Source: a virus (lineage: Duplodnaviria; Heunggongvirae; Uroviricota; Caudoviricetes). From it: 38,764 bases of DNA. A model generated the notes under the pieces. The model was given only the letters and a program-made list of their open reading frames with translations, was not told the DNA's origin and made no database searches. The stretch is taken from IMG/VR virus record IMGVR_UViG_2718218171_000001; one strand, given 5' to 3'. Numbering within the stretch: position 1 is the first letter of the stretch; every line of letters starts with the position of its first letter. The position numbers were made by a program, and so were the translations under genes. This document shows positions 202 to 332 of this stretch, in pieces.

Positions 202-220
202 GAGTGCTATCTCCGAATAG

Positions 221-236
221 GGAATCGAACCTGCAA
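221..236 (-). other. 16-nt tRNA T-arm-like segment (minus strand TTGCAGGTTCGATTCC) about 20 bp upstream of the excisionase start; candidate att-core-like sequence
   Basis: Plus strand ggaatcgaacctgcaa; its reverse complement carries the GGTTCGATTCC T-loop consensus and, as I recall it, matches the T-arm of tRNA-Arg argW, the KplE1 integration target. Both flanks diverge from the tRNA. Confidence 0.35.
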
Positions 237-332
237 ATCAGGTAATAAAAATACGCTCTATGACGGCGATGGTAGATCAGGATATTTTAAGAAACTGACA
301 GGCCTCATCGAGTGTGAGGCTGTATGGCTCCA

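Follow-up and report, generated by a model that had tools for sequence, protein, structure and literature searches.

A 13-nt piece of the arginine tRNA gene argW lies just upstream of the Shine-Dalgarno sequence of torI, the gene for the recombination directionality factor (RDF) of an argW-targeting prophage module, and this piece is conserved across enterobacterial genera. We tentatively read it as an orphan B-type half-site of the integrase IntS, with a GTTCG pentamer of the TorI type inside it, that would act at the DNA level to tune RDF expression. The stretch of DNA that was analyzed, hereafter the window, is the whole 38,764-nt sequence of IMG/VR record IMGVR_UViG_2718218171_000001.

A copy of the argW T-arm in the torI leader

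The window represents a complete prophage trimmed to gene boundaries, with the stop codon of torI at one end and the start codon of intS at the other. The features relevant to the argument are the following.

Window 1-201, minus strand: torI, encoding a 66-aa RDF; position 1 is the last base of the stop codon.
Window 202-220, minus strand: torI leader CTATTCGGAGATAGCACTC, with the Shine-Dalgarno sequence GGAG at 211-214.
Window 221-233, minus strand: 13-mer CAGGTTCGATTCC, argW nt 49-61; candidate B-type IntS core half-site.
Window 221-236, minus strand: 16-mer TTGCAGGTTCGATTCC, identical to argW nt 46-61.
Window 226-230, minus strand: GTTCG pentamer, the core of published TorI binding sites.
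Window 233-251, minus strand: lambda-PI-like leader remnant TTTTTATTACCTGATTTGC, with a cII-box-like TTAC-N5-TTGC at 233-245.
Window 37607-38764, minus strand: intS, encoding a heterobivalent P4-type integrase; position 38764 is the first base of the start codon.

In RefSeq, DNA identical to torI is labeled 'response regulator inhibitor TorI', and IntS is composed of Arm-DNA-bind_3, Phage_int_M and Phage_integrase domains. attL and argW are located just past the intS end of the window, and both prophage junctions fall outside it. Window 1-6 (minus strand; GGGTAA, the last torI codons and the stop) forms the start of the first GGGTAAAAT repeat, the remainder of which lies outside the window; in its form this repeat is like the published IntS arm-type sites, which are characterized by a TAAA motif (PMC2951348). 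Window 1-251 is 96–99% identical to HK620, Sf6, Kapi1, HK633 and other phages and constitutes the 5' part of the torI-attP-intS recombination module of the KplE1/HK620/Sf6 type. The DNA from ~260 onward matches thousands of other E. coli prophages instead, and the Sf6 record labels the equivalent stretch 'boundary sequence'. The leader and the 16-mer of KplE1 of K-12 MG1655 are exactly as in the window, and HK620 and Sf6 also carry the TTGCAGGTTCGATTCC 16-mer. The DNA under study is thus part of a well-studied E. coli prophage module, including that of K-12. The predicted PI/cII promoter of the HK620 and Sf6 records is the only annotation already known before torI, where no cis-element has been characterized. 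In the searchable literature we found no mention of tRNA-like DNA preceding torI or hkaC, and no paper that recognizes the motif as identical to the argW T-arm, points out that it adjoins the core or reports that it is conserved between genera; key subscription papers are outside that scope and may mention the element.

The original prediction, that the 16-mer matches argW, the target of the IntS/TorI module, is borne out by comparison with a real argW gene. As reference we used the copy adjoining intS in E. coli 2021CK-01784 (L004, 41038-41112), identified by ARAGORN as tRNA-Arg CCT; the sequence of this tRNA-Arg(CCU) gene is GTCCTCTTAGTTAAATGGATATAACGAGCCCCTCCTAAGGGCTAATTGCAGGTTCGATTCCTGCAGGGGACACCA. 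Its nt 46-61, identical to the 16-mer, comprise the last 2 nt of the variable loop, the 5' strand of the T-stem, the T-loop and the first nucleotide of the 3' strand of the T-stem. TTGCAGGTTCGATTCC lies 19 nt upstream of the torI ATG and occurs once in the window even when 2 mismatches are allowed, shuffled sequences giving an average of 0.01 matches; by our own arithmetic, about 1e-3 matches to any argW 16-mer are expected in 2 x 38.8 kb. Chance origin is excluded because the inner 13-mer is kept across genera, as described below. Both flanks of TTGCAGGTTCGATTCC in the window diverge from the tRNA, so that identity is confined to 16 nt, and the phage DNA predicted on either side is indeed present. 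The site was also correctly predicted not to be a tRNA gene: ARAGORN detected no tRNA genes in the window, Rfam gave no match on window 1-700 even at E<=10, and identity is limited to one arm, which rules out both a tRNA gene and a pseudogene. The outer TTG of the 16-mer is probably part of the lambda-PI-like leader, where it belongs to the TTGC box and extends the tRNA identity by coincidence; the conserved tRNA identity is therefore taken as 13 nt (window 221-233). Its sequence identifies TTGCAGGTTCGATTCC as a displaced copy of the argW T-arm.

The proposal that the 16-mer is a copy of the att core did not survive, as the junction repeats are a different sequence. The core duplicated at the KplE1 junctions is the 16-mer CTGCAGGGGACACCAT (PMC2951348), and Kapi1, Sf6 and HK620 use the same site, with attP located between xis and int in all of them (PMC8787464). 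CTGCAGGGGACACCAT corresponds to argW nt 61-75 plus one base. The HK620 record places the 'attP core' at 1368-1383, downstream of the torI homologue hkaC and upstream of int, and in K-12 and strain G4/9 the core is found ~85 bp past the torI stop codon, which places the true prophage junction beyond torI, as had been supposed, and outside the window. At the other end, CTGCAGGGGACACCAT forms the 3' end of argW adjoining intS. Because both junctions are just outside the window, CTGCAGGGGACACCAT is absent from it even at 3 mismatches allowed. The junction repeats consist of CTGCAGGGGACACCAT or a 1-nt variant, and the 16-mer is found once, internally. Thus, the cores of KplE1 (CPS-53), HK620, Sf6 and Kapi1 resemble the motif in being a 16-nt argW piece in the same module, but they represent nt 61-76 rather than nt 46-61. 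Furthermore, the KplE1-type core is duplicated at the junctions, lies between torI and intS and is the site of exchange (PMC2951348, PMC8787464), whereas the 16-mer precedes torI, occurs at none of the junctions and is dispensable for in-vitro excision. Efficient excision in vitro has been obtained with a 135-bp attR beginning within the final 20 nt of torI (PMC3509656), and the motif is therefore outside the minimal attR. The 16-mer is not the crossover core, and recombination in vitro does not depend on it.

The 16-mer and the core adjoin each other in argW, where C61 belongs to both (1-nt overlap). In phage DNA, ~305 bp occupied by the torI leader, torI and the P arm separate the two. That the module carries the T-arm of argW apart from the 3' end of the gene offers a clue to the origin of the unusual xis-attP-int order. 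Phages and islands that target tRNA genes, such as P4 and P22, likewise carry a verbatim piece of the target tRNA in their DNA; tRNA 3'-end identity blocks in the attP of such phages and islands were reportedly described by Reiter in 1989 and Williams in 2002. [quoted passage not shown] In contrast, the motif lies 5' of the crossover, is detached from the core and restores nothing.

Conservation of the 13-mer across lineages

An alignment-based scan for TorI, with one genome per species, yielded 21 loci, to which pattern scans of IMG/VR and metagenomes added more. CAGGTTCGATTCC is identical at 12-13 of 13 positions in 9 lineages and is located 4-13 nt upstream of the torI Shine-Dalgarno sequence in all of them. 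Motif-bearing torI leaders were found in Escherichia, Serratia fonticola, Citrobacter (with one mismatch), Pantoea, Edwardsiella, Erwinia phages and several metagenomic contigs. In one Pantoea species CCGG replaces CAGG in the motif, which is also carried by Pantoea stewartii, and in Erwinia phage Midgardsormr38 and related contigs the motif is often present in two tandem copies 16 nt apart. In the same lineages, the torI coding DNA is 71–82% identical to the window and its four-fold degenerate sites are about 45–55% identical, while the 20 nt upstream of the motif are identical at 2-6 of 20 positions in unrelated lineages. As judged from these comparisons, purifying selection has kept the inner 13 nt in different enterobacterial genera, and their retention reflects neither chance nor recent common descent.

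The tRNA-identical bases beyond the 13-mer differ between lineages: a 5' TTG is present in E. coli, and a 3' TG, extending identity to nt 63, in Serratia and Pantoea. These lineage-specific bases suggest descent from a longer argW copy. Within the IMG/VR scan, no torI leader had bases other than TT at T-loop positions 59/60. Since these positions are always TT there, the constraint acts on the argW-specific sequence, and a generic T-loop constraint is ruled out.

Not every module contains the motif. It is missing from the isolated phages Chronis and Eho49, which share the xis-attP-int layout, from Dryocola, where it was lost with a deletion of exactly 24 nt between two CTGG repeats, and from Tatumella, Rouxiella and several Pantoea modules. 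These motif-less modules still target argW, because each contains the xTGCAGGGGAC... core. Such losses bear on the possibility that the motif is a vestigial relic, a functionless scar of an ancient argW rearrangement, either IntS-mediated or produced by illegitimate recombination, that is carried along with torI. Dispensability in several lineages and in vitro, the position of the motif exactly at the 5' edge of the module, and the differing extra tRNA bases, which fit decay from a longer copy, are all consistent with a relic. Nevertheless, the motif is preserved at 13/13 positions in lineages with ~50% four-fold identity and random flanks, and neutral retention of 13 nt in at least six lineages is very improbable (~1e-4 per lineage by our own estimate). 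We regard a relic as unlikely, though still to be reckoned with; if the motif proved to have no phenotype, it would be a tidy tRNA-derived scar at a mosaic module boundary.

Proposed recognition by IntS and TorI

Within attB, the 13-mer corresponds to the segment immediately next to the true core: tRNA identity stops at argW nt 61 (63 in Serratia and Pantoea), at the very position where the identity block starts. The C site of the phage attP is also T-loop-like and shares TTCGAT with the 13-mer, with the consensus TTCGATGT in 16 modules compared to TTCGATTC in the motif and argW. Extended to the core, the C-site consensus of the 16 attP sequences reads xxTTCGATGT(A/C) followed by TGCAGG, and argW reads GGTTCGATTCC followed by TGCAGG. 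Recognition of core-type sites by IntS very probably includes TTCGAT, and the integrase has both arm-binding and core-binding/catalytic domains. The motif accordingly displays two properties of a B-side half-site, namely derivation from the attB segment adjoining the identity block and resemblance to the C site. A paired inverted half-site is absent: CTATTCGG comes after the window copy, where neither a TGCAGGG overlap nor a B' site is present. By sequence, then, the motif is an orphan half-site, devoid of an overlap region or a partner.

The interpretation of the motif as an orphan B-type half-site is based on its identity to the attB segment abutting the exchanged region and on the TTCGAT shared with the C site. 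According to this interpretation, the recombination proteins of the module itself would bind the 13-mer in the torI leader at the DNA level. IntS would be the favored binder, its site here being identical to the B site, with a possible contribution of TorI via GTTCG. Binding there would lower or adjust expression of the RDF; IntS could, for instance, form a bridge to the arm-type repeats overlapping the torI stop codon. The motif would have originated from argW itself, probably by an ancient att-associated rearrangement. A role in RDF tuning fits published work on the module, in which control acts on the RDF gene and both TorI and IntS repress PintS (PMC2951348): excision of KplE1, HK620 and Sf6 is controlled mainly via TorI expression, and the published conclusion is that excision control must target the RDF gene. 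A conserved 13-nt copy of an attB half-site on the torI ribosome-binding region is therefore a testable candidate for the missing control point of excision. Rho control of torI has reportedly been described by Menouni et al. in PNAS in 2013.

Several observations weigh against this assignment. The motif stands alone, lacking both a partner half-site and an overlap region, and isolated core-type sites are usually bound weakly by lambda-family integrases. The module works without the motif in Chronis, Eho49 and Dryocola and during in-vitro excision, and the tandem copies of the Erwinia type, 16 bp apart, are off helical phase. Moreover, the 13 nt of the motif are kept more strictly than real C sites, in which variation occurs; therefore, IntS binding alone may not explain the conservation of the motif.

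A specific form of the half-site interpretation, which we hold to be rather unlikely, is an IntS repression loop, in which the core-binding domain would contact the T-arm copy and the N-terminal domain the GGGTAAAAT repeats, enclosing the ~225-bp torI. The heterobivalent IntS required for such a loop is made constitutively in lysogens. If the loop is true, it closes a reciprocal Int/RDF circuit together with the repression of intS by TorI, and it explains how leaky read-through into torI fails to trigger excision.

The GTTCG pentamer raises the alternative that the motif is an autoregulatory operator, at which TorI would restrict its own production by binding GGTTCGAT in the leader of its gene. 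GTTCG is a validated determinant of TorI binding: the five attL sites, I1-I5, were defined by mutating GTTCG, GATCG or GTCCG, and I4 and I5 mediate PintS repression (PMC2951348). The 8-mer GGTTCGAT matches the I4 sequence GGTTCGCT at 7 of 8 positions and has the same orientation as the attL sites. In P. stewartii and Edwardsiella, a second GTTCG or GTCCG is present 12 nt downstream. A precedent for such autoregulation is the dual RDF/regulator Apl (PMC7498355).

We tabulated 25 attL pentamers with the TorI pattern from 5 phages. Their offsets from the core start are 22/42/85/95/105 in 4 of the 5 phages, and the first match in Eho49 is at 18. The pentamer is followed by C in 16 and by T in 9 of these sites, and by A in none, whereas in the motif the next base is invariably A, as in the tRNA. 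The conserved block reaches beyond the 8-bp site, covering 3 nt 5' and 5 nt 3' of GTTCG, and these additional positions follow the tRNA, not the attL TorI sites. TorI binds with high cooperativity to arrays phased at 10 or 20 bp (PMC3509656), but the torI leader has one site, or two 16 bp apart, and no phased repeats. Thus the motif shares the pentamer core and orientation of I1-I5 and lacks both the pyrimidine after the pentamer and the phased array, and its conservation is wider. Recombination proteins that act near a gene start are known from 186 Apl, P2 Cox, P4 Vis/Int and TorI/IntS at PintS (PMC2951348; PMC7498355); unlike in the Apl, Cox and Vis cases, no operator has been described before torI. 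We consider a TorI operator an unlikely explanation of the motif.

Promoter, RNA and attachment-site explanations

The HK620 record annotates a 'phage integration' promoter and a cII binding site on the equivalent stretch (features 1664-1702 and 1689-1701), and the Sf6 record a 'pI' promoter at the same place. These annotations are explained by the homology of the stretch upstream of the motif to a lambda-type xis leader, which consists of a terminator T-run followed by TTGCGTGTAATTGC, GGAG and ATG; we take TTGCGTGTAATTGC to be the lambda PI CII box. The motif could thus provide the spacer and the -10 element of a CII-activated PI promoter, with transcripts that start at or after the torI Shine-Dalgarno sequence and produce Int without TorI. 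In lambda, PI has its CII box upstream of and within xis, and the torI leader is homologous in its T-run, TTGC boxes and GGAG; it differs in an extra 18 nt, AGGTTCGATTCCCTATTC, which are inserted between the second TTGC and GGAGA and contain the motif, in N5 spacing, and in TTAC as the first box of the window. The torI leader box is generally TTGC-N5-TTGC, becoming TTAC-N5-TTGC in the window, and the HK620 box also has N5 spacing.

Among 80 IMG/VR contigs with identical TorI, the leader reads TTTTT(A/C)TT(G/A)CCTGATTTGCAGGTTCGATTCC(C/A)TATTCGGAGATAGCACTC-ATG with scattered single-base variants only, and most of these contigs have an intrinsic-terminator hairpin just upstream of it. The box is polymorphic within E. 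coli (TTGC/TTAC/TTTC) and absent from the Serratia, Pantoea, Edwardsiella and Erwinia leaders that keep the 13-mer. Hence, in place of a TTGC-N6-TTGC of the lambda PI type straddling the -35 region and conserved together with the motif, we observed a variable N5 box restricted to some leaders, whereas the motif itself is conserved across genera. In addition, a consensus scan of window 1-900 detected no sigma-70-like promoter on the torI strand, and the prophage is not P22-like. A PI promoter is an improbable account of the motif.

We also considered an RNA element in the torI 5' UTR, either a T-loop/T-arm mimic or an anti-Shine-Dalgarno pairing (UUCC/GGAG), that would affect translation, processing or modification. 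The fixed distance to the Shine-Dalgarno sequence, the possibility of UUCC/GGAG pairing in most lineages and of a T-arm-like hairpin in the Serratia and Edwardsiella copies, and a sequence that fits the generic TruB/TrmA T-loop motif are in line with such an element. However, RNAalifold analysis of ten lineages recovered only the 4-bp UUCC/GGAG helix at -0.08 kcal/mol, with 0 compensatory changes, and single-sequence folds of the leaders were inconsistent. The 3' strand of the T-stem is absent from the window copy, Rfam offers no match, and no variation occurs at positions 59/60 or in the CA of the 5' stem, which a T-loop fold could do without. A T-arm or T-loop mimic in RNA was rejected, as there is no covarying closing stem and positions 59/60 do not vary; an RNA element of any of these kinds appears quite improbable.

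Finally, an active secondary attachment site, also envisaged in the original prediction, at which IntS or another P4-type integrase exchanges the T-loop copy with argW, is highly improbable: exact identity is a requirement of an overlap region, CAGG-TTCGATT-CC(TG) has the dyad-plus-7-nt-loop layout of T-loop-targeting integrases, and the dyad symmetry is kept in the Serratia and Edwardsiella copies, but among 5,426 complete E. coli genomes none gave a full-length match to a chimeric argW(T-arm)::CTATTCGGAG-torI query, the upstream side of the motif is free of arm-type or TorI site arrays, and integration there would split argW because neither flank continues the tRNA.

The T-loop-like GGTTCGAT also precedes a P4-like int in three genera. 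Farther upstream in the window, the ypdJ-like DNA at 277-332 was at one point regarded as the stump of a xis gene replaced by torI; this idea was dropped, as the same segment precedes intact lambda-type xis too.

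TorI pentamers and copies of the T-arm motif

TorI pentamers, the GTTCG, GATCG or GTCCG cores of TorI binding sites, were tabulated in the P' arms of five phages (HK620, the E. coli 2021CK-01784 prophage, Midgardsormr38, Chronis and Eho49), and in four of the five they occur at offsets 22, 42, 85, 95 and 105 from the start of the att core. In the Eho49 P' arm, the first match to the pentamer pattern falls at offset 18, and its GTTCG starts at 22. The GTTCG of the argW T-loop lies 30 bp to the left of the TorI site I1, on the same helical face. This T-loop pentamer may be a sixth contact for TorI in attL that has gone unrecognised.

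In Erwinia-type modules the T-arm motif, the 13-mer copy of part of argW upstream of torI, occurs twice in tandem, at a period of 16 nt (Midgardsormr38, 2716–2747; L229, L231, L233, L235 and L238). One relative, L230, has a single copy, and in two others the second copy is altered by a point mutation. The motif was also found in torI modules of enterobacterial type on L092 and L107, labelled 'Actinomycetes MAG' and 'Parachlamydiaceae MAG', which are probably mis-binned or contaminant contigs.

Early-left genes and the E. coli 2021CK-01784 prophage

Window 277–417, minus strand: ypdJ-like ORF of 46 aa, with the HTH-like peptide MEPYSLTLDEACQFLKIS at its end

We considered whether this ORF is a stump left after replacement by torI, and rejected this reading because the same segment precedes an intact lambda-type xis in E. 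coli 2021CK-01784. Positions 2123–41112 of the latter locus form a single prophage-sized block; one of its ends carries lambda-type int-xis beside ybhC, the other intS-argW-yfdC, which implies an inversion or a chimera between two prophages. Within the early-left genes of the window, ~720 N characters are dispersed over positions 951–2300 (the PAPS-reductase, yfdR and yfdQ-like region), where ORF calls are unreliable.

Accessory genes and a second integrase

Window 11677–14511, minus strand: C-5 cytosine DNA methylase (PF00145, E = 3e-59) adjoining a 596-aa AAA_15/AAA_21 ATPase
Window 36342–37466, minus strand: Acyl_transf_3 acyltransferase gene, directly adjoining intS

The methylase/ATPase pair, located close to the late genes, resembles a moron or a defence cassette. 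The position of the acyltransferase gene is held in Sf6 by the O-antigen acetylase oac.

Past attR, a second integrase, P4-like and present as a fragment, was observed in E. coli G4/9 (5548–5950), L097 (~2600–2720) and L108 (~2450–2570), and in E. coli G4/9 this region also contains a truncated dsdC with the variant core CTGCAGGGGACGCCAT. The arrangement GGGGCATAAT..GGGGCAyT..GGTTCGAT..ATGyCCCC is common to three genera just upstream of the start of the P4-like int. The leader of this argW-associated integrase contains another T-loop-like 8-mer.
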